Assembly: GCA_026388335.1 (NCBI GenBank)
Contig: JAPLJZ010000247.1
Location: forward strand, 1,233 to 65,232
Source: Deltaproteobacteria bacterium
GTDB taxonomy: Bacteria; Desulfobacterota; Syntrophia; Syntrophales; UBA8958
Direction: 5' to 3'
Length of the DNA stretch: 64,000 nt
Shown here: piece after piece, positions 7,678-61,191 of the stretch
How positions within the stretch are numbered: position 1 is the stretch's first letter
Layout: each line of letters begins with the position of its first letter
Notes under the pieces: model-generated
The model's input: the letters and a program-made list of their open reading frames with translations, nothing else
Told to the model about the DNA's origin: nothing
Database searches by the model: none
Made by a program: the position numbers and the translations under genes

Positions 7678-8725
7678 GACATGCAAAGTGATTTTGAGGT
7701 GTTGATTACTGCTTGGGCTCGCACGGCGGGCTTGGGCATATGGTCGTCGTTGACATCGATGACGTGGTTGATGTGGTTGATGTCGTGCTGGTCGATGTCG
7801 TACTGGCCGCAGTTACCGGTACCGTTGTGGGCGTGGTTGTGGGACGTACCGTAGTCGTCGTCACGGGGACCGTGACGCCTGCCTGCTGGGCGTTATTCGT
7901 GTCCCTGGCCAGATTACTCTGAGTCTGCGTGATAGCTGTTGCCAAGACTGTCGATGCCTGGCTGGCCTGGCTCGCAACTGTCGAATCCGGGTTGCTCTTC
8001 ATGATCGTGGCGACGTCCTGGGCCACCTGGAGGGATGCCAACCTGGCCTGGTCCTGCACCACCGGTTTCAACACCGTGGCCGGCGCTGCCTGGGCCTGGA
8101 CGGTCTGCTGGTAGGCCGCCTGCAGGGCCTGATAAACACTGCTCTTTTGCGCGGCGCTGATACCGGGGTTCTCGAAGAAGCCCCGGATGACATTGCCGAC
8201 CACGGCGGCGTCGCCGCTGTACATATTCAGGTAGGTTCTCACGTTATCGTAGCCGAAATCCCCATCGGACCCTTGCAGACGAGCCACTGCCGTCGGGGTC
8301 TGGAGATAGTTCTTCGTGTTGGAAGCGCCGGATTTAAACCAGATCTTGCCGACCATGCAGGTGATGCGCCGGGCTGTATAGGTCGTCTTGAACATCCAGA
8401 AGCCACTCTGTTCCTGGCGCTCCTGAAGCAGGATGTTCGCATAGGGATTAACCTTCATGACCGCCCCGTCGTTAAAGGTGACATTCACCTCGCCGTTCTG
8501 CGTGGCGATGCCATCCCCGTCGTTCAAGGGCATACCCGCCTTGGTCACCTTGGTGATGACCGCCCCCGATTGGATAATCGCGTCCCCCTTGAAGCCGGTA
8601 ATCTTGCCGATGGCCGCCGCTACGGGGGAAGCGTAGAGGAGGATCAGGCCGGCCATTAAAAACGTCACGACCAACAATGTTTTCTTATAAAGCGGTTGAT
8701 TTTCCATAGGACAATTCTCCCTCCC
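7637..8725 (-). repeat. direct-repeat copy 1 of a ~1.1 kb duplicated segment (gene plus RBS plus hairpin)
   Basis: Nucleotide-level similarity to 16067-17160 is visible by eye from the stop codon region (TTACTGCTTGGGCTCGCACGGCGGGCTTGGGCATATGG identical) through the RBS. Confidence 0.75.
7706..8707 (-). CDS. secreted FecR-domain-like protein with Ser/Thr-rich tail ending ICPSPPCEPKQ (paralog 1)
   Basis: Signal peptide ...LYASPVAAA. IGKITGFKGDAIIQSG...PLNDGDGIATQNGEVNVTFNDGAVMKV resembles the FecR fold. Thr/Ser tract at the C-terminus. The track ORF runs to 8740; MENQ at 8707 aligns with the paralog. Confidence 0.7.
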   Translation of the reverse strand: MENQPLYKKTLLVVTFLMAGLILLYASPVAAAIGKITGFKGDAIIQSGAVITKVTKAGMPLNDGDGIATQNGEVNVTFNDGAVMKVNPYANILLQERQEQSGFWMFKTTYTARRITCMVGKIWFKSGASNTKNYLQTPTAVARLQGSDGDFGYDNVRTYLNMYSGDAAVVGNVIRGFFENPGISAAQKSSVYQALQAAYQQTVQAQAAPATVLKPVVQDQARLASLQVAQDVATIMKSNPDSTVASQASQASTVLATAITQTQSNLARDTNNAQQAGVTVPVTTTTVRPTTTPTTVPVTAASTTSTSTTSTTSTTSSMSTTTICPSPPCEPKQ

Positions 8726-10172: not shown

Positions 10173-10868
10173 ATGATGTTAAATAAAACTGATATTGATC
10201 GTATCGGCATCGTCATTCCCACCCTGAACGAGGGTCAAACTCTTGCTGCTATTATCGAGGGAGTCCGCCCCTATACAAATGATATTATCGTAGTGGATGG
10301 ACACTCAACGGACAATACTGCCGAGGTCGCCGGATCCCTGGGGGCAAAGATCGTCCTTGATCACAAAAAAGGGAAAGGCGAAGCGATCCGGACCGTCATT
10401 CCCCATCTTACAAGAGAGGTCACCGTATTTATCGACGCCGATGGCTCCCACGATCCCGACGACATCCCGGCCATTGTCAGACCCATTCTCGACGGCGAGG
10501 CAGACCATGTCTCCGGTTCACGCCTCATCGGCGGTTCCAGCGAACTCCACGGCGGCTTCGACGAGTGTTTCCGTCTCATGGGCAGCTCCTTAATCACCGC
10601 CTGCATCAACCACCGTTTCCATGTCCGTCTGTCTGAGAGCCAGAACGGCTTCCGGGCCGTCCGGACAGAGGTACTGCGCCAGCTCGGTCTCGAGGAAAAC
10701 ATCACCACCATCGAGCAGGAGATGATCATCAAGACCCTGAAGAAGGGTTATCGCATGGCCGAGGTTCCCTCACACGAACACTCGCGGAAGGCGGGCTATT
10801 CAAAGATCAACGTTCGCAAAGTGGCCTTCCGATATGTTTACAGTATGGTCAAGTACCTTTATTTTTAG
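10173..10868 (+). CDS. GT2 glycosyltransferase, polyprenyl-phosphate sugar synthase class (Dpm1/Ppm1/GtrB/ArnC-like)
   Basis: IGIVIPTLNEGQTL...IIVVDGHSTDNT...VFIDADGSHDP (DxD). The ~230 aa size is typical of dolichyl/undecaprenyl-phosphate glycosyl synthases. Confidence 0.75.
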   Translation: MMLNKTDIDRIGIVIPTLNEGQTLAAIIEGVRPYTNDIIVVDGHSTDNTAEVAGSLGAKIVLDHKKGKGEAIRTVIPHLTREVTVFIDADGSHDPDDIPAIVRPILDGEADHVSGSRLIGGSSELHGGFDECFRLMGSSLITACINHRFHVRLSESQNGFRAVRTEVLRQLGLEENITTIEQEMIIKTLKKGYRMAEVPSHEHSRKAGYSKINVRKVAFRYVYSMVKYLYF

Positions 10869-10874
10869 GCTAAT

Positions 10875-12275
10875 ATGGCCAATGTTCTCCTCTTCAATCC
10901 CCCGGCGCCCGGCGGCGGCGGTTTCACCCGGGAGGGCCGATGTACCCAGGAGGCGGGGGTATGGGCCACCCAGTGGCCGCCCCTGTCCCTGACGACGACG
11001 GCGGCCCTGCTTATAGCGAATGGTCATATCGTAAAGGTCTTTGATTTTCCCGCCCTCGGGATGACGGCAACAGCCATCTCCACGCTCATCCGGAAAGAAC
11101 ATCCCGATTTAGCCATCTGGGGCACGGCGACGCCGACCCTCGGTTCGGATCTTCAAATCGCCCGCTTAATCAAGGAAATATCTCCGTCGACAATCACGGC
11201 GGTTATGGGAACCCACGTTACCGCCCGACCCGAAGACGCCCTCTCGGAAAGGGCCGTGGATGCAGTTATCCGGGGTGAACCGGAAGGCATCATCGGGAAT
11301 CTCTGCCGGGTTGGTCATAGCAACTGGAAGAGCGTCAACGGCATTTCATATCGCCGCAAGCAGCTTATACAACATAATCCCGATGCCGATTTTCTCGCTC
11401 CCCCAGACATTCCCGCCCCGGCGTGGCATCTCATCGATCACGGCTCCTATCGTTTGCCCCTAAAGGGACGTCCTTTTCTCATGGTCGCCCCGGTCCGGGG
11501 ATGCCCGTACCGCTGCACCTTCTGCACCGCCCCTCTATACTACGGCGCGAAATTGCGGCGGCGGCCCATCGAAAACGTCCTCCGGGAAATTGAAATAAAC
11601 ACAAAGTCATATAGCATCAGTGACATATTCATCTGGGCCGACACGTTCACCGCCGACCGGGACTATGTCAGGGAATTCTGTCGGGCCGTCATCGCACGCA
11701 GCCTGTCCATCTCCTGGACCTGCAACAGTCGTGTGGACACCATCGACGAGGAAACCCTCATGTTGATGAAAAAGGCCGGCTTGTGGATGATTTCCTATGG
11801 TCTGGAGTCGGGAAACGACGGGATTCTCGCAAGGTCGGGGAAAAAGATGACCGTTGCACAATCGAGAAAGGCTGTGCTATGGGCAAAACAGACGGGGATT
11901 CGCGTGGCGGGCCACTTCATCTTCGGTCTCCCGGGGGAAAAGAAAAGCACTATGGAGGAAACCCTGGCCCTCGCCCTTGAGCTTCCCCTGGATATCGCCC
12001 AGTTTTATGCGGCGGCGCCCTTTCCGGGAACCGGGCTCTACGCCGAGGCCAAGCGCGAGGGCTGGCTGAGGAAGGACTCATTTTCTTCCCAGGCTAGCGC
12101 CGTCATGGATCTGCCGGGTTTGTCGGCGGATGAGGTCGACGATTTCCGCCGTTTCGCCTTCCGGAAGTTCTACGGACGGCCCCAGGCGGCGCTTAATCTT
12201 CTTTCCATGGCGGAATGGGAGGCATTGAAAAGCGTCCCCGCGGCGATGAAAAGATTTCTTGGCTGGACACGGTAA
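10875..12275 (+). CDS. B12-binding-domain radical SAM enzyme
   Basis: CxxxCxxC cluster motif GCPYRCTFCTAP. An N-terminal ~150 aa Rossmann-like B12-binding region precedes it. Confidence 0.8.
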   Translation: MANVLLFNPPAPGGGGFTREGRCTQEAGVWATQWPPLSLTTTAALLIANGHIVKVFDFPALGMTATAISTLIRKEHPDLAIWGTATPTLGSDLQIARLIKEISPSTITAVMGTHVTARPEDALSERAVDAVIRGEPEGIIGNLCRVGHSNWKSVNGISYRRKQLIQHNPDADFLAPPDIPAPAWHLIDHGSYRLPLKGRPFLMVAPVRGCPYRCTFCTAPLYYGAKLRRRPIENVLREIEINTKSYSISDIFIWADTFTADRDYVREFCRAVIARSLSISWTCNSRVDTIDEETLMLMKKAGLWMISYGLESGNDGILARSGKKMTVAQSRKAVLWAKQTGIRVAGHFIFGLPGEKKSTMEETLALALELPLDIAQFYAAAPFPGTGLYAEAKREGWLRKDSFSSQASAVMDLPGLSADEVDDFRRFAFRKFYGRPQAALNLLSMAEWEALKSVPAAMKRFLGWTR

Positions 12276-20471: not shown

Positions 20472-23384
20472 TTATCTCCCGATGCGCACCCAATCCACCC
20501 TCAACTGCCGGTTGTTGTAGGCGTCGTCGGGATTATTGACCAAGTGGACTTCAATTCGATGATCGACGCCGGATATCGGTATCGTGTCCCCAGATTTATC
20601 TACTTTGAACCGGTAAATCTGCCAGCGGGGTTCCGTCACATCTACCTCACCGACTATTTGCCCATCCAGGACAACCCGCACCCGGGGCGGATCTTGCATT
20701 TGAATAAGGTTTCGGGCCTTGATATCGATGAAACCAGTCATGCGCTCGTTCCCCACGCCCGGAAAGTCAGGTACACGAAACGAAGCAGCTATGTAATTAT
20801 TCTTGAAGATCTCCCAGTAATGGTGCTCCCAGTTTCTCATAACCGGTTGTCCGGGCGTTTTCTCGGTCATGCTCTCCGCCTCGATCTGAACAAACGGCGC
20901 CGTATCAACGCAAGCCCCGACATTCGTCAAGAGGGTTGTGAATAGCCGCAATGCCCGTTCCTGATTTTCTCCCGCCGCCATAACCGAAACTGGCTGGGGA
21001 AAATGCGCTGCGGTCCGACTGAGCGACGCGTATTGAGGCTTCAGAATCTCTGTCCAGTCCAACGTATCAACGATGATAAGTCCTTTACCTGACTGCGCTG
21101 CCATAATGACGGCAGGCTCGGTAAGCTTCCACCAGCCTGGCGATAAGGTCTCAAGGTTAACGCTTTTCCCATCCCCTACAAAGGACATAGGCACTGATTT
21201 ATTCACCCCCTCCCCTTCAAGGGGAGGTTTAGGGTGGGGATGGGGTTTAGACGAGAGTTGTGGCGAAGCTAAAGGGGCAAGCTCCAGCGCCCATTTGGAC
21301 GGCGGCAGCAGGCTCGCGAAATTATAGGTCACATCGGGAAGCGACGCGGGCCAGTAAAGATATTGATTCAGAAGACCCTGGGTCAGCAGTGAAGCGTTCC
21401 AGAGAGATCCCGGGGTTCGAACCATCGGAGCATCTGGATCTCTCCCGGCAATTTTAACAGGCAAGCGCTCCTTTGACAATGACACAACCTTCAGGCCTCG
21501 CACCGGCGGGTTTATCATAGGCAATGTTTGATCATCGGCGCCCGTCAGCCAGAGGATATTTCCCGCTTTAACCCAATCCTCAAGGCGAGAGTCGGCATGA
21601 GGCTGCCGGGCAAGCTCAGACGCCGTCATCATGAAAATGCCCTGATAATCATCAGTCAATGCGGCGTTTTCGACATGAACACCCCATGCCGACAAATGCT
21701 GCTGCACTACCTCCGGAAGATGCAAGCTTGTCCCTGTTAACAACCTATCAGTGCTATCCTGCCCCGACATGTTCGCTCCGGCTACACTCCCCGTCCTTTC
21801 AGGACTTTCGAGATATCTAATGGCATTAAAGAGGATTTCCGCCGCCACCGGTTCCTTATGCGCTTTCTCAACCAACGCCAATTGACTGAAAAGTGTCGTG
21901 CCGGACACATCAGTCTTTTCGTTAGTCGTACCGGCAATACCAGGCTTTGCGATCGCCCTGCCACCCACACCGGGTTTTTCGATCAATGAGCAATAAATCA
22001 GGCCGCCTGTCCCACCGCTGACGACCAACGGCCGATACCCGCCACCGATTGGCAAATTGAAATCTTTACGGGAGATGTTCAGATCCGCTGCCCATAATCT
22101 GAACATGTCATTCCTACTCATACTGGAATCCTTTGCCCTTACGACCGGATGCCCGGGTGCGGCAACAAACCCCAACGTCGTCCCGTGCCGCTCATTAAGC
22201 GTCAGGCCCGGGGGGAATCCCAGTGGATATCTGTCCTGCTCCAGGATAAGCGTCGCTTCCCGACCGGCGGTGATTCGTTCCGTAAGCTTCCGAATTTCTT
22301 TATCGTCGAGTTTCGTTAAGGCATCCTTCCCGATGATGAGGATGCCTCGCATCTTTTTCCCCTCCGTGGCACTTGCCGCAGGCATGCTTGTCACCTTTCG
22401 ATAGGGTAACCCCAGCTTTTTGAAAAGATTCTCCGTATCTCCCAATGGATCGAAAAGATAAACCGGCTTCAGCCGCCTCCAGGTAACACCCGCCGGCCGG
22501 GGATAAACAGCCACCAATTTTTGAATGTCATCCTTTGATCTTCGGATCTCATCCCTCCCCCCTTCCGCGACAGGGGATCCAATGAGATTATTACTTCCCC
22601 CTTTCCCAAAAGAGGACCAAGGGGGATTTTCCAGGACACAAATCTTAACTTCATAATCCCGAACCGCACGGACCTTTGGCAAAGAAAACCCGATTTCAAC
22701 TTCCTGCCGGCCACCGGGCTCGACAAGAAAAGGCCCTAAAATATTAGCTTCGTAATCGCTGACTTGTTTTGATTTCCCTTTAACAGTCGAATTACCGGCA
22801 CGGACCGCTTTCGCTCCGACGGCAGCATTACCTTTGTCGCCTGCTTGTTCCCCTAACGAATAGTGAATGGATAAGCGCTTCTGCCCCCGGGTATCATTCA
22901 GCAAGATGCCTTTCCAGCGCAACGTAGCGCCGCCGTAGTATCTCTCCACGGCCTGTGGATAGAGGATCAGCTTCAGCGGTTTCAGCGCTTCTTTCAAGGC
23001 GGCGTTTGCCTTCGGACCCGCGGGCGGATTCCAGGGATTAATCATTGCAACATCCATGGCCCGCGTCGCTTCCACGGTATGTTTCCAGATTTCCCCTTGT
23101 GCGACATCTCGAATCGTACGGTGCTGCGCGTAGGCGTCATCACCGGAAATGATGGCTTCCGTGTGGGGCGCCCCACCGTAGAAATAACCGATTTCACCGA
23201 TATCCAGGGGCTTCTTTCGCTCCCAGCGCCATTTGAAATCCGGTTTGTGATACCAGAAGGAAGAAGTCGATATAGGTACTCGACCGGCTTTCTCCCCTAT
23301 CCTTGCGATCCCGCTCTTTCCCCCTCCCCTCAATCCCCTCCCGCAAGGGGAGGGGAAGCTTATTGGAATGCGCCGCCGCATCAC
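20472..23384 (-). CDS. C-terminal ~900 aa of a giant secreted glycosidase (continuation of the GH2 ORF in another frame); ends in a CBM-like beta-sandwich
   Basis: After the repeat-derived first ~30 aa it reads ...WYHKPDFKWRWERKKPLDIGEIGYFYGG, a GH2 nucleophile-like context. The C-terminus FVQIEAES...RVVLDGQIVGEV...QLRVDWVRIGR resembles a carbohydrate-binding module. No signal peptide of its own. Confidence 0.5.
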   Translation of the reverse strand: MMRRRIPISFPSPCGRGLRGGGKSGIARIGEKAGRVPISTSSFWYHKPDFKWRWERKKPLDIGEIGYFYGGAPHTEAIISGDDAYAQHRTIRDVAQGEIWKHTVEATRAMDVAMINPWNPPAGPKANAALKEALKPLKLILYPQAVERYYGGATLRWKGILLNDTRGQKRLSIHYSLGEQAGDKGNAAVGAKAVRAGNSTVKGKSKQVSDYEANILGPFLVEPGGRQEVEIGFSLPKVRAVRDYEVKICVLENPPWSSFGKGGSNNLIGSPVAEGGRDEIRRSKDDIQKLVAVYPRPAGVTWRRLKPVYLFDPLGDTENLFKKLGLPYRKVTSMPAASATEGKKMRGILIIGKDALTKLDDKEIRKLTERITAGREATLILEQDRYPLGFPPGLTLNERHGTTLGFVAAPGHPVVRAKDSSMSRNDMFRLWAADLNISRKDFNLPIGGGYRPLVVSGGTGGLIYCSLIEKPGVGGRAIAKPGIAGTTNEKTDVSGTTLFSQLALVEKAHKEPVAAEILFNAIRYLESPERTGSVAGANMSGQDSTDRLLTGTSLHLPEVVQQHLSAWGVHVENAALTDDYQGIFMMTASELARQPHADSRLEDWVKAGNILWLTGADDQTLPMINPPVRGLKVVSLSKERLPVKIAGRDPDAPMVRTPGSLWNASLLTQGLLNQYLYWPASLPDVTYNFASLLPPSKWALELAPLASPQLSSKPHPHPKPPLEGEGVNKSVPMSFVGDGKSVNLETLSPGWWKLTEPAVIMAAQSGKGLIIVDTLDWTEILKPQYASLSRTAAHFPQPVSVMAAGENQERALRLFTTLLTNVGACVDTAPFVQIEAESMTEKTPGQPVMRNWEHHYWEIFKNNYIAASFRVPDFPGVGNERMTGFIDIKARNLIQMQDPPRVRVVLDGQIVGEVDVTEPRWQIYRFKVDKSGDTIPISGVDHRIEVHLVNNPDDAYNNRQLRVDWVRIGR
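21205..21247. repeat. family-B GC-hairpin repeat inside CDS
   Basis: ACCCCCTCCCCTTCAAGGGGAGGTTTAGGGTGGGGATGGGGTT. Read in frame as KPHPHPKPPLEGEGV. Confidence 0.75.
22553..22633. repeat. family-A hairpin repeat (plus adjacent small hairpin) inside CDS
   Basis: CCCCCTTTCCCAAAAGAGGACCAAGGGGGATTTTCC preceded by CCCCCCTTCCGCGACAGGGG. Read in frame as ENPPWSSFGKGGSNNLIGSPVAEGG. Confidence 0.7.
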
Positions 23385-25101
23385 GGCGCGGCAGACTCGT
23401 CACATCTCCCAGCCACCAGGCATCCTTCGGATACTGATTCCAAAACGGCAGTTCATGAGGATAGTGCAGGCTGATGATATCCGCCACACCCTCCGGGTCG
23501 TCACCGCCGTTGAAGAGAATCGGCCGGGTGGGGTCCCACCTCTTGACCTTCCTCCCCAATTCCGCAAATTTCATCTCTGCGCGGTTGCCGTGACTGTACT
23601 GGATAGACTCGTTTTCAATACTGTAGACGATAACCGAGGGATGATTCCGGAATTTCCGCACCAAGCCCTGCCAGTGAATAGTCGCGTTATCAAAGAAAAT
23701 ATCGCTGTTATAATTATTTTGAACCACATAAGAACCATTAATCGCCGATTCTGCCACAACCAGCATCCCCATTTGATCAGCTACATCGTAATACCAATCG
23801 GGAAAAATATTCGCATGAAAGCGAACTGCATTGACATTCAAATTCTTCAAATGCTGCAGATGCTCCACAAGTTGCTGACGACTGAACCCATTATTGCCAA
23901 TCGAAGCCGTAAACAGATGGATCTTCTTCCCATTCAGCCAGAGTTCATGTCCCTTAACGATAATCTGCCGATAACCAAAGGGGATTACTTTTCTATAACA
24001 AAGTCCACCACCCAAATTAATTCTCAAATTATAAAGAACCGGACTTTTCGGCTCCCAGGGTGTCAACCCCTTCGCGTCCAGAATAACCTGAAATGTCTTA
24101 CTCTGTCCCGCCGCAACGTCGCGAACGTCGGTGACGTCAACGACGGTGATTCCTTTGCTGTCATTCCCGACGACGATTTCCTTGCCATCACCTCCCTCAA
24201 CGATGGCAATGGTCATTATCCCCTGCCACGCCCGCGCCCCCTGGTTGTGAATCTGTCCGGACACCCGAATCTTGCCGTCGGCAACCAGCGCATCCACTGC
24301 CACATCGTCCACGCGCACACCCGGCAATACCTCAAACCGGACATCATCCCAAATACCATACAGACGATGATTGCCGCCTACCGGAGCAATCGTTTTATAC
24401 CAGATGGATTTATCAAAGGGACTCCCTGGTGAAAATTGAAGGATCACACCATTCTTGTTGCTTCCTTGACCGGCTGCATCCGCTGATATCTCCTGCCCCT
24501 GTGCCTTCTCAAGCACTGAAGTCCAGTCCTGAACAAGGATAATCAATTCATTATCATTTTCTCCTTTATCCTTCACTGCTAAAGGAGAAGCAGGACGGAG
24601 TTCAGGAAATTGGGCGCTTCCCCTGTTTTTCAGGAAAGGCGTAAGATCATGTTCAAACGGCTCTAACGTCGGCCCATGCCCACCCACGAACCTGCCATTG
24701 AGATAAACCTGCGACGCGAAGGCAACACCATTGAAATGGATGATGATTCGATCGTCGATGTTTCCGGCAGGTAATGCAAAGGTTTTACGGTAGGCAGCAA
24801 AATGGGTTGGGGATGAACCTTCACGGGAAGGAATCTCTACAGGCGCCCACTTGTCCGGCTTCAGCGCGCTCAAGGAAAATTGATCGATGAATTGCCGCTG
24901 CCAAGGGCCATTCATGGAAATTATTTTGGGGTAAAAAACAGTTCCAACAGTTTCAACGGTTCCAGCAGTTCCAGCAGTTTCAACGGCATAAGCGCTTAAA
25001 ACACCAATATGCAGGCATAAAAAAAGCGTCATGATTAAGCACCATGCCGCCCCTTTTTGTCGATGTTTCATTTTAGATCGACCTGCAATTTTACAATTCA
25101 A
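23194..25101 (-). CDS. glycoside hydrolase family 2-like protein, N-terminal part (signal peptide, sugar-binding, Ig-like, start of TIM barrel)
   Basis: Signal peptide ...CLHIGVLSAYA. NAVRFHANIFPDWYYDVADQMGMLVVAES and VIVYSIENES (acid/base-type NE) are GH2 TIM-barrel signatures. The last ~55 aa are repeat or out-of-frame sequence. Confidence 0.7.
   Translation of the reverse strand: MNCKIAGRSKMKHRQKGAAWCLIMTLFLCLHIGVLSAYAVETAGTAGTVETVGTVFYPKIISMNGPWQRQFIDQFSLSALKPDKWAPVEIPSREGSSPTHFAAYRKTFALPAGNIDDRIIIHFNGVAFASQVYLNGRFVGGHGPTLEPFEHDLTPFLKNRGSAQFPELRPASPLAVKDKGENDNELIILVQDWTSVLEKAQGQEISADAAGQGSNKNGVILQFSPGSPFDKSIWYKTIAPVGGNHRLYGIWDDVRFEVLPGVRVDDVAVDALVADGKIRVSGQIHNQGARAWQGIMTIAIVEGGDGKEIVVGNDSKGITVVDVTDVRDVAAGQSKTFQVILDAKGLTPWEPKSPVLYNLRINLGGGLCYRKVIPFGYRQIIVKGHELWLNGKKIHLFTASIGNNGFSRQQLVEHLQHLKNLNVNAVRFHANIFPDWYYDVADQMGMLVVAESAINGSYVVQNNYNSDIFFDNATIHWQGLVRKFRNHPSVIVYSIENESIQYSHGNRAEMKFAELGRKVKRWDPTRPILFNGGDDPEGVADIISLHYPHELPFWNQYPKDAWWLGDVTSLPRRDAAAHSNKLPLPLREGIEGRGKERDRKDRGESRSSTYIDFFLLVSQTGFQMALGAKEAPGYR
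23316..23359. repeat. family-B GC-hairpin repeat at the frame junction of the two GH2 ORFs
   Basis: CTTTCCCCCTCCCCTCAATCCCCTCCCGCAAGGGGAGGGGAAGC. Read as LPLPLREGIEGRG in one ORF and SFPSPCGRGLRGGG in the other. Confidence 0.75.
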
Positions 25102-26602: not shown

Positions 26603-26700
26603 ATTGAAAAATATAAGGAGGCATCGCCCCTATTTCCCCAAGGAGAGACGTGCCTTTTCGCACACCAATTACAAATCAATGCTGACCGTTACAGATTCAC

Positions 26701-26743
26701 TCCCCCCTTTAGTAAAGGGGGGAAAGGGGGGATTTTATACAAA
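26701..26743. repeat. family-A hairpin repeat abutting the stop codon of the response regulator
   Basis: TCCCCCCTTTAGTAAAGGGGGGAAAGGGGGGATTTTATACAAA. Confidence 0.8.
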
Positions 26744-27217
26744 CTACTTCCATATCATGCCGAGGATGATGCCCAGAATCAACCAGATGGGGATGGAGGC
26801 GATCAGGGCCCAGAAAAGACCGGTCATCGTCTTCAATGATTTTTTCGTCTTCCTGGTGCTGAGAATCCTCTCCACTTTTATGCGGATGTCTTCCATGTGA
26901 AAAGGCTTGGTCACATAGTCATAGGCCCCTTCCTTGATCGCATTGACAGCGGTGTTTGTATCCGGGAAGCCTGTAATCATCAGAAAATATACTAGACTGT
27001 CCTGCATTTTTATCCTTTTCAGCAGTTCAAGGCCGTCGATCTTCGGCATCATAAGGTCGGAGATGACGCAGTCGAATCTGCCCGGGACAAACTTCATCAG
27101 CGCATCCGCCCCATCGATAGCGGTGACCACTTCATGGCCGCAACTCGTAAAGTATTCACCTAAAGCCGAGCGGATGGCTTCATCATCATCGACTATCAGG
27201 ATACGTCCAGCATTCAT
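26744..27217 (-). CDS. single-domain response regulator (REC) with C-terminal transmembrane helix
   Basis: ILIVDDDEAIR...DCVISDLMMPKIDG...VTKPF (receiver-domain residues). Tail GLFWALIASIPIWLILGIILGMIW is a TM segment. No output domain. Confidence 0.8.
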   Translation of the reverse strand: MNAGRILIVDDDEAIRSALGEYFTSCGHEVVTAIDGADALMKFVPGRFDCVISDLMMPKIDGLELLKRIKMQDSLVYFLMITGFPDTNTAVNAIKEGAYDYVTKPFHMEDIRIKVERILSTRKTKKSLKTMTGLFWALIASIPIWLILGIILGMIWK

Positions 27218-34536: not shown

Positions 34537-34574
34537 ACACCCCCACCCTCCCCCTGCAATGGGGAGGGAAATGG
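34537..34574. repeat. family-B GC-hairpin repeat in the short gap between two genes
   Basis: ACACCCCCACCCTCCCCCTGCAATGGGGAGGGAAATGG. Confidence 0.75.
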
Positions 34575-34615
34575 AAGGACATTCTCCCTTGCTGGGAGTG
34601 AATTTAAAAGAGTTG

Positions 34616-37086: not shown

Positions 37087-38685
37087 TCATCCCGCCGCGG
37101 CATAGAAGTCCTTGATTTGATCCGCAACATACCGGATCTGTCTTTCATCAAGTTCCGGGTACATGGGCAGGGAGAGAATCCTTTTCGCCCCGGCTTCCGC
37201 AATCGGAAAATCACCGGTTTTATATCCCAGGTGCTGATAGGCAAGTTGGAGATGCAAAGGCGTCGGATAGTGCAGCCCCGTCGCGATGCCCTTTTCCAGA
37301 AGGTATTTCTGCAAAGCCTCACGCCTGACTGCCTGAATTACAAACAGGTGATAGACGCTGTAAACATTTTCTCTTTCCGTCGGGACCTGCACCTCCTCAA
37401 CATCTTTCAGGAATTCGCGATATAAAGCGGCATTGACCCGGCGTTTCTCCGTCCATTCCGCCAGATATTTCGCCTTCACGGAAAGCACCGCTCCCTGGAA
37501 GGCCTCCATCCGGTAATTATGACCGATCACCTGATGCTGATAACGCTGTATTTCCCCGTGCTGTCGGATCATCCTGGCCTTTTCATATAGTCCATCATCA
37601 TTGGTGATCAATGCCCCCGCCTCGCCATAAGCCCCCAAGTTCTTACCGGGGAAAAAACTGAAGGCGCCAAAAGCCCCAAAGTTCCCAACCGGTTTCTCTT
37701 GATATCGCGCCAAATGCGCCTGGCAGCAGTCTTCCACAATCGTTAAACCATACTGATCAGCCAATGCGCCGACGGCCTCCATATTAGCCGGCTGCCCGTA
37801 GAGATGCACAGGAATAATCGCCTTAATTTGAATATTCCCGCCCCCTTGACGGGGGAGGTCTGGGTGGGGGTGAAAATGGGGATGCCCTTCCATTAATTCC
37901 CTCACCTTCTCAACATCAACATTATAGTATTCATCGCAATCCACAAAAACCGGCGTAGCTCCGCAAAGCGACACCGCCTCGGCAGTAGCGATAAACGTAT
38001 TCACCGGCAGGATCACCCCATCGCCAGGTCCAATCCCCGAAGCCAGCAGGGCGATATGCAAGGCGTCCGTCCCGCTGGAGAGACCGATGCAATGCTTCGC
38101 CCCCTGCATCGCGGCGAATGCACCTTCAAATTCCTCCACATACTTCCCCAGGATAAAGGCCGTATTGGCAATAACATCCGTGAGTTTGTCATCAATTTCG
38201 TTATATGTTCGATGATGCTGCGCCTTCAGGTCGACAAATGGAACAGATGAAACCAAAGGATTGTTATTCGTCTCCTTGAAAAGCGAGACAAATTCGGCAG
38301 GTGTGAAAGCCGGCACAGGAGAACCCTGAAAATGCCTTGTGTTGCGGGTGATGATGTAATCCAGATTGAACTGGCTGGCCGCTGCCATCTTCATGTTGTC
38401 TTCAAAATCCGGAGATAACGACGCATTGGCCTCCGTGAGGGTAGATTTCCGGACCGGTAGGACGGAAAGTGAGCGCAGGTTCGTGAATATCTTGTTCCGC
38501 GCGACAAGTTCATCAAATTCCTTTTTCAGGTAGTAGTGCACCGTCGAATAAGAATCCGCGCTCAACCACCCTTCCACCTTATTCAAGGCGCAGAGATTCA
38601 GGACTGCAAAGCTGTCGAGATAAAACTCACGCCGGGGAAGCAGAATATCCAGAACCACATTGATATCGAGAAGTATCCTGATCAT
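37087..38685 (-). CDS. in-frame fusion of a PIN-domain toxin-like module (~150 aa) to a DegT/DnrJ/EryC1 sugar aminotransferase
   Basis: N-terminus MIRILLDINVVLDILL...DFEDNM...IITRNTRHF (PIN). From VPFVDLKAQ onward it is DegT-like (GLSSGTDALHIAL, SFFPGKNLGAYGEAG). The ATG at 38685 forms an ATGA overlap with the stop of the upstream DUF104 gene. Confidence 0.8.
   Translation of the reverse strand: MIRILLDINVVLDILLPRREFYLDSFAVLNLCALNKVEGWLSADSYSTVHYYLKKEFDELVARNKIFTNLRSLSVLPVRKSTLTEANASLSPDFEDNMKMAAASQFNLDYIITRNTRHFQGSPVPAFTPAEFVSLFKETNNNPLVSSVPFVDLKAQHHRTYNEIDDKLTDVIANTAFILGKYVEEFEGAFAAMQGAKHCIGLSSGTDALHIALLASGIGPGDGVILPVNTFIATAEAVSLCGATPVFVDCDEYYNVDVEKVRELMEGHPHFHPHPDLPRQGGGNIQIKAIIPVHLYGQPANMEAVGALADQYGLTIVEDCCQAHLARYQEKPVGNFGAFGAFSFFPGKNLGAYGEAGALITNDDGLYEKARMIRQHGEIQRYQHQVIGHNYRMEAFQGAVLSVKAKYLAEWTEKRRVNAALYREFLKDVEEVQVPTERENVYSVYHLFVIQAVRREALQKYLLEKGIATGLHYPTPLHLQLAYQHLGYKTGDFPIAEAGAKRILSLPMYPELDERQIRYVADQIKDFYAAAG
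37837..37882. repeat. family-B GC-hairpin repeat inserted in frame in the aminotransferase
   Basis: CCCGCCCCCTTGACGGGGGAGGTCTGGGTGGGGGTGAAAATGGGGA, read as HPHFHPHPDLPRQGGG. Confidence 0.8.
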
Positions 38686-38969
38686 CGATGCTTCCTCCAC
38701 AGGTGCTCCCGGTAGGCCTCCCTGTCGTATTTTCCCGGTGGCTGTCTCAGAATGCCCACCAATTCCAAAATATCCTTGCTGACTTCCATCCCCGGAAAAT
38801 TCTTCTGAAAATAGCTTCTGGCCTCCCCCTGATAAAGATTCACATGCTCCTCGGATGTGTGGGGTTTTTCATCACTGATCACAACAACGGCATCGGAATC
38901 CCCGTCCAGTTGCAATGGCTCGACAGGAACGAATACGCCATCTTTGTATTTTACTGAAATAACCTGCAT
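38682..38969 (-). CDS. DUF104 (AF2212-like) antitoxin-type protein, C-terminally extended
   Basis: MQVISVKYKDGVFVPVEPLQLDG..AVVVI is the DUF104 signature. Translationally coupled to the PIN fusion. Confidence 0.6.
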   Translation of the reverse strand: MQVISVKYKDGVFVPVEPLQLDGDSDAVVVISDEKPHTSEEHVNLYQGEARSYFQKNFPGMEVSKDILELVGILRQPPGKYDREAYREHLWRKHR

Positions 38970-38996: not shown

Positions 38997-39480
38997 CTAA
39001 TTCCCCAAGAACATTTCCGCTACTTCTTCGACGAGATCTTTTGATTTCATCAAAGAGGTACCACCCCGGTACTTCTTCTTTAAGCGAATCAGGGGAATTT
39101 TCTCCATTTCATCCAAACGAACCATCCGGCCCCTTTCGATCAGGTGGCGATCAACGGCGGCCAATTTACCTTTGAACAGGGAATAAGTGGGGGTTCCCAG
39201 CACCGCCGCTTCCCGGTTCATGCTCCCAACAAAGCAATCCGGATTCGATACGACGTGTTCAAGGGCGGCTTCAAACAGGGGGTTCTCAAAATGATGATAC
39301 AAAGCCCGTGTGGCAGGAAGCCTCATAACAGCAAGAATTTTCCCCGGCGATATCTTGAGCCTGGAAAGGTAATCTTCAACGGGCGCAAAGTCCGCCAGAT
39401 AAATCTCTTCATTCGTTCCCTAATTTCTTACCGCCATGCTCACCGGTCGGCACATGCTTCGTGCGAAAAAGATTGATGAA
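38997..39480 (-). pseudogene. DUF354-family gene remnant, copy 1 (about the last 160 codons, frameshifted upstream)
   Basis: EEIYLADFAPVEDYLSRLKISPGKILAVMRLPATRALYHH...GSMNREAAVLGTPTYSLFKGKLAAVDRHLIE... No N-terminal half. Frame break near 39400. Confidence 0.55.
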
Positions 39481-40328: not shown

Positions 40329-41373
40329 TCGTCCTCCAGTTCAGGAAATCTTTACGGAGTTTTTCGGCAGCCTCTGCGGACCTTTCCGGATGATCCTTGA
40401 GATCGAGGTAAACCTGAACCGGATGAACGCAACGGATGCCTGCGACTTCACCGGCGCCATGAAATACCCCCTCGTCCTTGGGTTCAATCAGCCATACGTT
40501 GCCACCCCGAGGTTCCTCTTGAAAGCCGATCTCTGCCAACCAGGACGGCGACGGAGCCTCATTCAGGTAAATGCTTGCAGTGCGATATGCCGCAAAATGG
40601 GTGTAGAGCCAGGCCGCACCAAGGCCGGTGGCGGCATATGCGATCCCTCGATTTTGACAGTCGGCCGCCAACCGCTGTAACGCCTCTTCGCCGGTTCGCG
40701 CCGCTATATGACCTCGTATCCATGCATGCGCCTGTATTCGGTACATCTCCCTCCATGATTCCATGAGCGCTGCGGGATCCTGCACCAGCAAATTTCCCGA
40801 CTTATCGCGCCGGATCAAACCTTCATTTACCATTCGGGAGACGATCCGGCTTACAAAGCCCTCGTCCATGCCGACGGTCCGGGCCAATTCCCGCTGGGGG
40901 AAAGACTTTCCCGGATGGATGAGGAGCCAGCGGGCGATCCGCGAGCTTTTAGGTGCAAATATATCGGCCGGCCGGCCTCTGACATTGAAGCGGTTGGGAC
41001 GTCCTTCGACACGGACATGAAGTCCCGAACCCATGATCCGTCCGTTGCCGGAAAGGTCGAACCAGCCGATGCCGGCCTCTTCACAGACGGTGCGTCCGGC
41101 TGAACCCATAAAAGGGACGCAAATGACAGGCACGGCTTGTACGTCTATAGGAAGCGACAGCTTCCGGTGTTGCTCGATCGCCGTTTTCATAGGGATAATC
41201 GAACTGGACGACTTGTACACCACGACAAATAGTTTACCCAACGCCTGAAGAGCCAGATCCACGCCGGGAATCGGTTGGGCAGCAAGGACGGCATCAGGCT
41301 CGATGCCCAAAAGCTCGGAAAATACCTGGGTTGCGCCGGCTAACCAATTATTATGTTTACTTTTGTCACTCAT
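40318..41373 (-). CDS. winged-HTH regulator with AbiEi-like C-terminal domain and an extra N-terminal domain
   Basis: SFPQRELARTVGMDEGFVSRIVSRMVNEGLIRRD (MarR-like wHTH). The C-terminal VQVYLDLKDHPERSAEAAEKL resembles AbiEi antitoxins. Confidence 0.45.
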   Translation of the reverse strand: MSDKSKHNNWLAGATQVFSELLGIEPDAVLAAQPIPGVDLALQALGKLFVVVYKSSSSIIPMKTAIEQHRKLSLPIDVQAVPVICVPFMGSAGRTVCEEAGIGWFDLSGNGRIMGSGLHVRVEGRPNRFNVRGRPADIFAPKSSRIARWLLIHPGKSFPQRELARTVGMDEGFVSRIVSRMVNEGLIRRDKSGNLLVQDPAALMESWREMYRIQAHAWIRGHIAARTGEEALQRLAADCQNRGIAYAATGLGAAWLYTHFAAYRTASIYLNEAPSPSWLAEIGFQEEPRGGNVWLIEPKDEGVFHGAGEVAGIRCVHPVQVYLDLKDHPERSAEAAEKLRKDFLNWRTSDR

Positions 41374-41447: not shown

Positions 41448-41649
41448 AAAAACATTCCCGCTACCTCTTCGACAAGATCTTTTGATTTCATCAGCGAGGA
41501 GTCACCCCGGTCCTTCTTCTTCAGGCGAATCAAGGGAATTTTCTCCATTTCATCCAAATGAACCATCCGGCCCTTTTCGATCAGGTGGCGATCAACGGCG
41601 GCTAATTTACCTTTAAACAGGGAATAAGTCGGCGTTCCCAGGACCGCCG
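41448..41649 (-). pseudogene. DUF354 remnant, copy 2 (last ~66 codons)
   Basis: Reads AAVLGTPTYSLFKGKLAAVDRHLIEKGRMVHLDEMEKIPLIRLKKKDRGDSSLMKSKDLVEEVAGMFLEE*. DNA is ~85-90 percent identical by eye to copies 1 and 3. Confidence 0.6.
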
Positions 41650-41738
41650 CCTCCAGTTCAGGAAATCTTTACGGAGTTGTTCGGCAGCCTCCGCAGACCT
41701 TTCCGGATGATCCTTGAGATCGAGGTAAATCTGAACCG
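41650..41738 (-). pseudogene. duplicated 3-prime end of the AbiEi-like gene fused to DUF354 copy 2
   Basis: The 89 bp match 40333-40421 with about 5 mismatches. Reads VQIYLDLKDHPERSAEAAEQLRKDFLNW in its own frame. Confidence 0.7.
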
Positions 41739-43245: not shown

Positions 43246-43572
43246 TCACCTCTCTATTTCGTATATATTTTTAGTATATACACCAATGATCGTAAAATCA
43301 AGGAACATTTCCGCGACTTCTTCGACAAGATCTTTTGATTTCATCAATGAGGAACCATTCTGATCCTTCTTCTTCAGGAGAACCAGGGGAATTTTCTCCA
43401 TTTCATCCAAATGAACCATCCGGCCCTTTTCGATCAGGTGGCGATCAACGGCGGCCAATTTTCCTTTGAACAGGGAATAAGTGGGGGTTCCCAGCACCAC
43501 TGCTTCCCTGTTCATGCTCCCGCCACCGCTGATTAAGAGCCCCGCGTGGTACATGGGATTGGGTCTGTCCAA
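43246..43572 (-). pseudogene. DUF354 remnant, copy 3 (last ~100 codons), abutting the AT-rich cassette
   Basis: HAGLLISGGGSMNREAVVLGTPTYSLFKGKLAAVDRHLIEKGRMVHLDEMEKIPL... Only 18 bp separate it from the stop of the upstream GT4 gene. No N-terminal half is present. Confidence 0.6.
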
Positions 43573-60099: not shown

Positions 60100-61191
60100 T
60101 CAACGATAGAACTCTTTGATCACCAGCGAAACCATTTCTATCTCATCATCGGTGAGGCGCGAGGCGGATGGTAACCAGAGTCCTTTTTGGCCGATGAGGT
60201 TTGAGACTTTATGTTCTCCGGCTACACTGTACGCCTTCTGTTTATTAATCGGTGGATACATAATTCGTGTCCCTATGCCTCTTCCTTTTAAGTGATTCTG
60301 TAGGTCCTCTCTTTTCTCAACCAAAACATCAATAAACCAAGGGACAGTGCGCTCCAGGTCTTGATTGAAAAACGACACTTGGACTACATCTTCGAGCAAA
60401 CGTTTGTATAACCTGTATATTTCTTTTTTTCTCGCTACACGCCAGGGCAGTTTTTTCATTTGCTCTATACCTATACAGGCTTGGAGGTCTGTAAATTTGA
60501 AGTTATATCCGATCGTATCGTGTATGTCTGTTCCGCCCTCTGCTCTCCCAAAATCTTTCAATCTCTGTAGTTTGCGTGCAATTTGCTCATCGTTTGTTAC
60601 TATGCAGCCGCCCTGTCCTGTGGAGATGACTTTTGGCGCTGAAAAAGAAAAACTCCCAACCAATCCGGCAGTACCCATATGCCGGCCATCAGGATAAAAG
60701 GAGCCAAGGCTCTGTGCCGCATCTTCTATAAGGACCAGGGAATGTCGATTGCACAAATCTTGAAACGCTTGAATGCCTGCCTGTGGATACCTTCCATTGG
60801 CCGTAACCAACATTATAGCCTTCGTTTTCCGGGTTATGGCATTTTCCACTTTGTTGATATCCAAACAGAGAGTCTCGCGTTCGACATCCACAAACACAGG
60901 TATTGCACCAAATATCTTGACCGAATTCGGGGTGGCAATCATAGTATAGTTAGGTATGATTACCTCATCCACCGCTTTCACACCGCAGGCTAATGCCGCC
61001 AAGGTAAGGCTTATTGTTCCGTTATTGACAACGACGCAATGCTTCGCCCCGGTATATTCGGCAATCATATTCTCGAACTTCTCAGTCTGTTTGAACTCTG
61101 TGATCCAGCCACCTTCGTTCATATAATCGACAAGCGCCTGTTTTTCTTCGTCGCCGAACCATGGTTCCATTTGAGGAATACTCATAATCAT
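60100..61191 (-). CDS. DegT/DnrJ/EryC1 sugar aminotransferase
   Basis: VNNGTISLTLAALA..., SFSAPKVISTGQGG (PLP-Lys region), and 363 aa length. Confidence 0.9.
   Translation of the reverse strand: MIMSIPQMEPWFGDEEKQALVDYMNEGGWITEFKQTEKFENMIAEYTGAKHCVVVNNGTISLTLAALACGVKAVDEVIIPNYTMIATPNSVKIFGAIPVFVDVERETLCLDINKVENAITRKTKAIMLVTANGRYPQAGIQAFQDLCNRHSLVLIEDAAQSLGSFYPDGRHMGTAGLVGSFSFSAPKVISTGQGGCIVTNDEQIARKLQRLKDFGRAEGGTDIHDTIGYNFKFTDLQACIGIEQMKKLPWRVARKKEIYRLYKRLLEDVVQVSFFNQDLERTVPWFIDVLVEKREDLQNHLKGRGIGTRIMYPPINKQKAYSVAGEHKVSNLIGQKGLWLPSASRLTDDEIEMVSLVIKEFYR

Follow-up and report, generated by a model that had tools for sequence, protein, structure and literature searches.

A G/C-rich triplex-motif repeat, probably inserted in frame, in the gene of a deltaproteobacterial PIN-DegT aminotransferase

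Introduction

Can a short repeat that elsewhere lies between genes enter the reading frame of a conserved enzyme, and survive there? The question is raised by a 64-kb stretch of deltaproteobacterial DNA (contig JAPLJZ010000247.1, hereafter the window, with all coordinates counted from its first letter), in which a G/C-rich element of 46 nucleotides (nt) at 37837–37882, on the plus strand, lies within the minus-strand gene of a DegT/DnrJ/EryC1 sugar aminotransferase. A preliminary description of the window had read this element as a hairpin mini-repeat of an undescribed family, inserted in frame in the manner of the Rickettsia palindromic elements (RPEs), and had pointed to a second DegT gene of the window as evidence. 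The analysis reported here leads to a reading to which I give a probability of roughly 0.8, namely that a copy of the G/C-rich triplex-motif family, known as TMECO, PIT or BoxC, inserted in frame in a permissive loop of the enzyme, is translated as a disordered segment, and is now a tolerated passenger in decay.

Few non-coding repeats of bacteria are known to be shared as widely as the triplex-motif repeats, which have no known function or dispersal mechanism. Earlier work on the motif was reportedly done by Hoyne & Maher, in 2000 and 2002. Holder et al. (2015) define TMECO, earlier called PIT elements or BoxC, as CCCTCNCCC N3-6 GGGNGAGGG N3 GGGNGAGGG, allowing no more than a single mismatch in the stem, and report 3610 copies in 262 proteobacterial genomes, G/C-rich motifs being abundant in cyanobacteria as well (PMC4666352). 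In Escherichia coli MG1655 (K-12) there are 23 copies, all of them intergenic (PMC4666352). The copies are not tied to mobile elements of any known kind and act neither as promoters nor as terminators; the triplex forms in vitro and is not detectable in vivo, and sequence variability is raised locally around the copies (PMC4666352).

The insert in the PIN-DegT gene

The host gene (37087–38685, minus strand) encodes a fusion of a PIN_3 domain with a DegT/DnrJ/EryC1 aminotransferase, of 532 amino acids (aa) from its ATG. The open reading frame (ORF) spans 37087–38700 and counts 537 codons from the first possible start, the ATG at 38685 being the likely one. Pfam matches were obtained for PIN_3 at residues 8–122 (DNA about 38335–38679) and for DegT_DnrJ_EryC1 at residues 167–529 (E = 5e-111; DNA about 37114–38202). 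All 75 positions that are invariant in the family, in an alignment of 93 sequences, are retained in the host protein, among them K353 of the PGKN motif, which I take to be the lysine that binds pyridoxal phosphate in the DegT family. The PIN-DegT orthologs are 514–535 aa long and share the architecture and synteny of the window. The host enzyme is presumably active. The NCBI annotation of the gene consists of a 389-aa DegT product only.

The 46-nt string CCCGCCCCCTTGACGGGGGAGGTCTGGGTGGGGGTGAAAATGGGGA sits exactly at 37837–37882 and is read in frame inside the DegT domain, as had been claimed; neither this 46-mer nor its 18-nt core has a second site in the window, exactly or with up to three mismatches. 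The element, hereafter copy 1, is composed of a C-rich arm CCGCCCCC (37838–37845), a loop TTGAC, a G-rich arm GGGGGAGG (37851–37858), a spacer TCT and a G-rich tail GGGTGGGGGTGAAAATGGGG, its G-rich strand being the template strand of the DegT gene. Read on the minus strand it gives ...ELMEG HPHFHPHPDLPRQGGG NIQIKAI..., and the ORF translation through this region is ...VEKVRELMEGHPHFHPHPDLPRQGGGNIQIKAIIPVHLYG....

Relative to solved DegT structures and to the DegT paralog of the window (60100–61191, minus strand), the host gene has 18 extra codons (37834–37887, minus strand; residues 272–289, GHPHFHPHPDLPRQGGGN). The distance from the PVFVD motif to the KAI motif is 21 residues in the paralog and 38 in the host gene, in agreement with the about 17 extra codons counted previously, and BLASTP places an 18-residue gap exactly at GHPHFHPHPDLPRQGGGN. 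The HMMER alignments to PDB entries 7b0d and 3frk contain a matching gap of 18 residues; in that to 2oga the gap is shorter and lies a few residues upstream, part of the insert being aligned with the 2oga chain. The paralog does lack the insert, as the preliminary description had argued, but it is merely 30% identical to the host protein, and it is the orthologs that carry the proof.

A search of 5.8 billion clustered proteins listed 119 other proteins. An identical protein is found in NCBI (MCX5829812.1, from a deltaproteobacterial metagenome-assembled genome, MAG), and the next-best orthologs are 80%, 77%, 77% and 76% identical, followed by lower values. The insert peptide GHPHFHPHPDLPRQGGGN is present in none of the 119 other orthologs listed, so that the alignment with orthologs, which had been proposed as a check, does not refute the insertion reading. 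The order AF2212-like small gene, PIN-DegT, Bac_transf, GFO/IDH/MocA, hexapeptide transferase is common to the window and to the relatives P0003, P0004 and P0005, and this shared order shows the three to be true orthologs. In DNA alignments, the window has a clean surplus of 45 nt over the loci L001 and L003 (about 37840–37884, HPHFHPHPDLPRQGG) and of 33 nt over L005, with conserved codons on either side in all cases. Once the 45 nt are removed, the gene has exactly the 27-residue spacing from PVFVD to PVHLY seen in P0003 and P0004. The polarity of the event is probably that of an insertion rather than of a loss.

That the insert is an artefact of assembly or annotation, or that the gene is dead, is extremely unlikely. 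The source is indeed a MAG, the NCBI product stops at 389 aa, and the neighbouring GH2-like gene carries a frameshift (see below). However, an identical protein (P0240) is found on five contigs, assembled separately from the runs SRR20698639, ERR15302169 and ERR15302196, and the three loci fetched from these contigs match the window at 100% identity across the insert, which is therefore not an artefact of the MAG assembly. The ORF is also intact, with its invariant residues kept and a confident fold model.

Membership in the triplex-motif family

An nhmmer profile, built solely from copies of the repeat in other genomes and applied to the window with a cut-off of E < 0.01, matched exactly four sites. 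The best preserved is copy 2 (21205–21250, plus strand; match at 21205–21242, E = 2.6e-9), which lies in frame in a GH2-like gene. Copy 1, in the DegT gene, follows (match at 37837–37874, plus strand, E = 1.1e-4), then copy 4 (34538–34575, minus strand; match at 34538–34569, E = 1.5e-3) and copy 3 (23316–23365, minus strand; match at 23331–23357, E = 1.6e-3), the latter again in the GH2-like gene. Copy 4 is intergenic, with the GFO/IDH/MocA stop codon (34616) on one side and, close by on the other, the hexapeptide acetyltransferase ATG (about 34533). The profile had no match in the loci of the empty-site orthologs. A generic repeat finder missed the family in the window, the copies having come from motif, hairpin and profile scans, and no Rfam family reached its gathering threshold there.

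All four copies share one layout, in which a C-arm is joined by a short loop to a complementary G-arm, and this in turn by a spacer to a second G-rich arm, and this three-block architecture is found in copy 1 as CCGCCCCC-TTGAC-GGGGGAGG-TCT-GGGTGGGGG. Together they span about 17 kb that takes in the polysaccharide gene cluster. Perfect C-rich hairpins occur at five loci of the window, against about one in Markov simulations, and the hairpin of copy 2 is clearly structured (z = -2.7 against shuffles). The G-rich strands of copies 1–3 are canonical G-quadruplex (G4) motifs, which makes three of the seven such motifs in the window; that of copy 1 lies at 37851–37881. The preliminary description had called copy 1 a GC-hairpin mini-repeat, but the hairpin of this copy is weak, with a perfect stem of 5 bp, or 7 bp with one mismatch.

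A composite pattern drawn from copies 1 and 2 (CCCCTT N2-6 GGGGAGG N1-6 GGGTGGGG) gave at least 148 matches at at least 120 loci of the genome collection. The matches listed cover Alpha-, Beta-, Gamma- and Deltaproteobacteria and Cyanobacteria of about 40% G+C, as well as Bacteroidota, Nitrospirae, Planctomycetes, Chloroflexi and Spirochaetes, and among them inverted pairs are frequent, mostly about 60–420 nt apart. Among the loci L009–L128 there are also some tandem arrays, with copies about 150–340 nt apart, and the sequence is very constant (examples are L014, L025, L028, L038, L036 and L050). In L063 the pattern forms part of an 89-nt hairpin (1732–1820), and sub-threshold Rfam matches to microRNAs on this long hairpin were dismissed as spurious. 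Such strong conservation of a 40-nt non-coding repeat across phyla is striking.

Compared with the canonical deltaproteobacterial copy of L047, copy 1 has a T>G change in the C-arm, a first G-arm and spacer that are one base shorter, and two substitutions in the spacer. The L047 copy (41 nt) matches 4647 of 5426 complete E. coli genomes, with about 90% identity over 95% of its length and at a median of four places per genome, and no annotated feature lies beneath the ten E. coli matches listed. One E. coli copy, which sits between mrcB and hrpB, is collinear with the DegT insert at about 75% identity, the TTGA loop and the trailing GTGAA included, and copy 1 also aligns with deltaproteobacterial and cyanobacterial copies. 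By sequence, then, the repeat belongs to the described G/C-rich intrastrand triplex motif alias TMECO, PIT or BoxC (PMC4666352), and given the direct match to E. coli copies, the idea that the family had escaped description has to be abandoned.

An alternative to be weighed here is that the DegT segment is a lineage-specific low-complexity loop, grown by slippage and point mutation, with a likeness to the family that reflects compositional convergence. I consider this very unlikely. Such a loop could be imagined, as loop length among the orthologs ranges from 26 to 100 aa, the orthologs P0005, P0046 and P0077 have glycine-rich loops on G-rich DNA that carries no family signal, and the hairpin of copy 1 is not significant; yet convergence would have to produce a profile match at E = 1e-4 with no spurious matches elsewhere in the window, and the collinearity of arm, loop (TTGA), arm, spacer and tail (GGGTGGGGGTGAA) with canonical copies of E. 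coli and a deltaproteobacterium, in a family of which the empty-site loci hold no copy.

In-frame copies in the GH2-like gene

Copies 2 and 3 are hosted by a giant GH2-like gene (20472–25101, minus strand), which is split into the ORFs 23194–25101 and 20472–23384. The Pfam match to the GH2 barrel breaks off midway in the former ORF, the alignment to a PDB GH2 chain continues over the junction, and the GH2-like orthologs are uninterrupted single proteins of 1321–1647 aa; the two ORFs are the halves of one gene. No solved structure was found for the C-terminal ORF of 970 aa. A surplus of 4 nt at 23247–23268, downstream of copy 3 (GACTTCTTCCTTCTGG versus GACTTTTTCTGG in the locus L006), shifts the frame and thereby splits the gene, which is either a recent pseudogene or affected by a sequencing or assembly error.

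Copy 2, read in frame as SSKPHPHPKPPLEGEGV, is oriented like the DegT copy, and its G-tail is read in the matching phase (HPHP). The ortholog P0121, which is 72% identical, carries the copy 2 insert in the diverged form KPHPHPNPNPTLEGERGN, with length differences that are multiples of three, and P0122 and P0123 are without it. An in-frame copy has therefore persisted through substantial divergence.

Copy 3 is read in the opposite orientation, as KLPLPLREGIEGRGKE. It lies in a 39-aa insert of a loop of the GH2 TIM barrel, between the acid/base (IENES) and nucleophile (IGEIGY) motifs, and in a three-frame translation its flanks WWLGDVTS ... TYIDFF fall in one frame. This barrel loop is short in P0122, while P0121, P0123 and P0124 each have a different insert, and it thus represents a second recurrent insertion site beside that of the DegT loop described below. 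The inserts of the loop (23194–23420 in the window, minus strand) measure about 25–70 aa in the window gene, P0121, P0123 and P0124. The insert of L006 (4590–4800) combines a family-like C-rich tail (CACCCCCACCCAAACCC) with a different hairpin (CCCCCCTTTAGAAAAGGGGGG). A hairpin in this L006 insert is near-identical to a distinct intergenic element of the window, TCCCCCC TTTAGTAAA GGGGGGA AA GGGGGGA, at 26700–26735, just 3' of the stop codon of a response-regulator gene (26744–27217, minus strand). At 24939–24986, close to where the GH2-like gene has its 5' end, a tandem periodicity of 9 nt (CAGTTCCAA/CGGTTCCAG...) encodes the VETAGTAGTVETVGTV stretch that follows the signal peptide.

Of the four copies in the window, three accordingly lie inside ORFs and in frame, a departure from the intergenic location of TMECO, and these three are probably translated, to judge from their reading frames. 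By comparison, none of 33 canonical matches (among the matches listed, in other genomes below 57% G+C) is convincingly intragenic. Candidate in-frame copies in L044, L066, L112, L088 and L099 were rejected, as they lie upstream of real starts or in spurious ORFs. Coding density is about 90%, as a rough estimate. Most copies placed at random would thus fall in genes, and a comparison of the count inside genes with chance, as suggested in the preliminary description, is therefore ill-posed. The informative contrast is with the strictly intergenic location of the family elsewhere (PMC4666352; matches in other genomes).

The recipient loops

The 537-residue ORF was modelled with AlphaFold2, using 92 homologues. 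The model has a mean predicted local distance difference test score (pLDDT) of 89.6 and a predicted template modelling score (pTM) of 0.88, with both domains confident. Residues 271–290 form a coil of low confidence (pLDDT 57–63), between a helix at 263–272 and a strand at 290–295. In fold-type I aminotransferases, the cofactor is bound where the strands have their C-terminal ends. The insert comes before the KAIIPVHLYG strand, at its N-terminal end, and should therefore face the far surface, away from the cofactor site. The surface loop that had been predicted for the insert is thus seen in the model as a low-pLDDT coil, and its surface position is likely on these grounds. The insert peptide would presumably be neutral for the enzyme.

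I measured the spacing from PVFVD to PVHLY in the 112 orthologs that have both anchors. It has a mode of 31 residues (n = 56), 36 of the 112 have a spacing of 39–100 residues, and the overall range is the one given above. The long loops resemble translated simple repeats, such as periods of QRSEVRG, ITNNDSRIT and SHRPTQTDTD. About a third of the orthologs (among P0013–P0106) have 8–69 extra loop residues, from genome-specific heptamers of the CACAGAC, GGTGAGAA and ATTACGA types. The DNA of the L007 insert (10790–10915) recurs at at least eight places of its own contig and that of the L008 insert (10414–10533) at at least four, mostly between called genes in both cases. In neighbour-joining order, the long-loop proteins are interspersed among short-loop ones, and the small cluster around the window protein holds four different loop states. 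Since the long loops are built from genome-specific repeats, different genomes have filled the DegT loop with their own local repeats, and the loop is a recurrent insertion-tolerant site.

An old remnant of the triplex motif in the neighbours P0005 (GGGG...), P0046 (HPGGNGG) and P0077 (Gly-rich) was considered and is not supported, as the DNA of L133 and L134 gave no repeat-profile signal for the loops of P0046 and P0077, and the L005 loop gave no significant match to the profile. The P0005 loop (L005, about 8690–8720) has GGAGGGGGAGGGAC, which encodes GGGG, at the position of the arm. This G-run could be what is left of a copy that was lost in part, an older G-run that came to serve as an arm, or a coincidence.

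The recurrence raises the possibility that insertions are actively targeted to the loop-coding DNA, directed for example by a G-run, by the replication-fork context or by arm homology. Different types of repeat do occupy the same DegT loop across lineages scattered over the tree, one TIM-barrel loop of the GH2-like gene shows a like pattern, and L005 has a G-run where the arm would be. I nevertheless find targeting unlikely, because the empty sites show no obvious DNA motif in common, the loops of P0046 and P0077 give no family signal, and selection acting on a repeat-rich genome explains the recurrence without it. The more explicit version, in which two loops, that from helix to strand in DegT and that between the catalytic residues of the GH2 barrel, are landing pads in repeat-rich anaerobic Deltaproteobacteria, where the family inserts at G-runs such as that of L005 by a structure- or homology-directed process, appears doubtful to the same degree. 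If true, it would expose the dispersal mechanism of a repeat common to bacteria from E. coli to the cyanobacteria, and would show this repeat to be a generator of protein loop diversity.

The tolerance of the loop also bears on the proposal that the element is kept for a role at the level of nucleic acid, either as a template-strand switch between triplex or G4 and hairpin that acts on transcription or replication, or as an instability device that diversifies the polysaccharide locus, the peptide being a by-product. The canonical G4 motif on the G-rich strand and the share of family copies among the G4 motifs of the window would suit such a role, as would the presence of four copies within the about 17 kb that take in the polysaccharide genes. 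It is also in line with the TMECO triplex formed in vitro, with the more frequent rearrangement of triplex-motif loci among E. coli strains (PMC4666352) and with the related archaeal repeats, which switch between hairpin or triplex and G4 (PMC8044849). The decay of copy 1, on the other hand, argues against selection on structure, PIT/TMECO has neither promoter or terminator activity nor a triplex signal in vivo (PMC4666352), and the unrelated repeats found in the same loop of other orthologs fit tolerance better than a specific function. I regard this proposal as quite unlikely.

Origin and fate of the insert

The preferred reading, that of a tolerated triplex-motif copy, can be put as a sequence of steps. 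A copy of the G/C-rich motif would have inserted in the DNA for a surface loop of the PIN-DegT sugar aminotransferase, presumably after the lineage had split from its relatives of 76–80% identity. On its C-rich strand the element is free of stop codons in the frame used, and the 45 nt added are a multiple of three; the gene therefore stays open, and the element would be translated. Its product would be a Pro/His/Gly-rich, probably disordered loop of 15–18 residues between the helix and the KAIIPVHLYG strand. The copy would persist as a tolerated passenger that is already decaying, the likely signs of decay being mutations in the C-arm and the first G-arm, the loss of 1 nt in the spacer region and the weak hairpin. 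The triplex-motif family is not known to have a transposase.

What the preliminary description proposed in essence, an in-frame insertion like that of the RPEs, is thus upheld by syntenic orthologs with an empty site, the profile match, the low-confidence loop, the identical independent assemblies and the two further in-frame copies.

Several observations weigh against this account. Copy 1 does not fit the strict TMECO pattern, even with four substitutions, whereas copy 3, alone among the window copies, does so with at most four (23322–23354); copy 1 departs from the pattern in its second arm, GGGTGGGGG, and its 8-nt first G-arm, and is therefore a decayed variant of the family rather than a canonical member. 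Shuffled versions of copy 1 fold just as stably (z = -0.2 to -0.4). In L005, GGGGGAGGG stands where the window has GGGGGCGGG, the reverse complement of the C-arm. Neither a target-site duplication nor any other mark of insertion was seen, and the variable length of the loop across the DegT family weakens the call of polarity. The size of the family in the source genome is known from 64 kb of it (n = 4 copies).

If the account is right, the three in-frame copies within about 17 kb indicate that triplex-motif repeats can enter coding sequence and survive, one of them having been kept across 28% protein divergence. The RPE phenomenon would thereby reach a cosmopolitan element that is much shorter than the RPEs and apparently unrelated to them. 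The DegT and GH2 barrel loops, with their different genome-specific repeats, would provide a natural map of insertion-tolerant sites in two folds, and short repeats could be a steady supply of loop length variation in proteins. Such inserts may also lower identity scores and put odd His/Pro/Gly-rich peptides in annotations.

Neighbouring features of the locus

The N-terminal PIN_3 domain of the host protein is fused with the aminotransferase in one ORF, and this architecture is kept in most of the best 120 orthologs. A gene for a 95-aa AF2212-like (antitoxin-like) protein precedes and overlaps the PIN-DegT ORF (37087–38969 for the two, minus strand), and the arrangement was also noted in the loci L001–L005, L007, L008 and L129–L131. 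It is odd to find, in polysaccharide loci, a sugar aminotransferase with a permanently fused nuclease domain of the toxin type.

The region immediately upstream of the PIN-DegT operon, which holds small ORFs, also contains three direct repeats of 219 nt (39009–39227, 41450–41668 and 43303–43521) that are 85–91% identical, together with a pair of 89-nt repeats (40333–40421 and 41650–41738). The independent Logan contigs end within the first of the 219-nt repeats.

Comparison with known systems

Several classes of short prokaryotic repeat share some features with the family found here. REP sequences (repetitive extragenic palindromes) and REPINs, which RAYT transposases mobilise, are likewise short, GC-rich, dispersed hairpin repeats (PMC3116915, PMC3733652), and the inverted pairs of the family in Alphaproteobacteria and some other groups, mostly with the spacing given above, recall REPIN doublets. 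However, the window copies are singletons without a GTAG or CGTC tag seen at their ends, and lie mostly within ORFs, whereas REPs are extragenic by definition.

Closer in structure are the quadruplex repeats of the Methanomicrobiaceae, which combine a G4-capable G-tract with a complementary C-tract, in an equilibrium of hairpin and triplex-G4 forms, and which are interspersed and mutually similar (PMC8044849). In those repeats the C-tract lies 3' of the G-tract and all copies are intergenic, while in the window family the C-tract is 5'; analogous bacterial repeats with a 5' C-tract are cited by Chashchina et al. (2021) in their study of archaeal G4/hairpin repeats (PMC8044849).

Intragenic transposable elements of the miniature inverted-repeat class (MITEs), such as ERIC, BOX and those of Anabaena, are also non-autonomous repeats with open frames fused to host ORFs, but they measure 100–300 bp and have terminal inverted repeats and target-site duplications (PMC10969869), neither of which is seen here.

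With TMECO, the window family shares its build (a C-rich arm and a complementary G-rich one on either side of a loop of 3–6 nt, then 3 nt of spacer and a further G-rich arm), a length of about 37–40 nt, and a dispersed, multi-copy occurrence in many genomes. It differs in its second G-arm, GGGTGGGGG instead of GGGNGAGGG, and in that three of four window copies are read in frame, as opposed to the intergenic copies of MG1655. No account of copies of the TMECO/PIT/BoxC family that are in frame and translated turned up in the part of the literature that was searched.

The behaviour of the DegT element is best compared with that of the RPEs, which are about 150 bp long and fall into ten Rickettsia-specific families, each with a conserved peptide, many of them being in frame in metabolic genes (PMC10969869). 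A 2024 review of MITEs states that an RPE-like process "is conceivable" in other prokaryotes (PMC10969869). Like the RPEs, the repeat described here is dispersed and palindromic, lies in frame in unrelated genes, where it is predicted to be translated in a manner compatible with the fold, and is also found between genes. Unlike them, the DegT element is of 38–46 nt, G/C-rich and cosmopolitan, has a hairpin with a third arm (triplex/G4), and resides in a deltaproteobacterial host. The DegT element therefore acts like an RPE, yet is not one by size or host, nor apparently by sequence family, and it represents a clean new example of a known phenomenon rather than a new kind of system.

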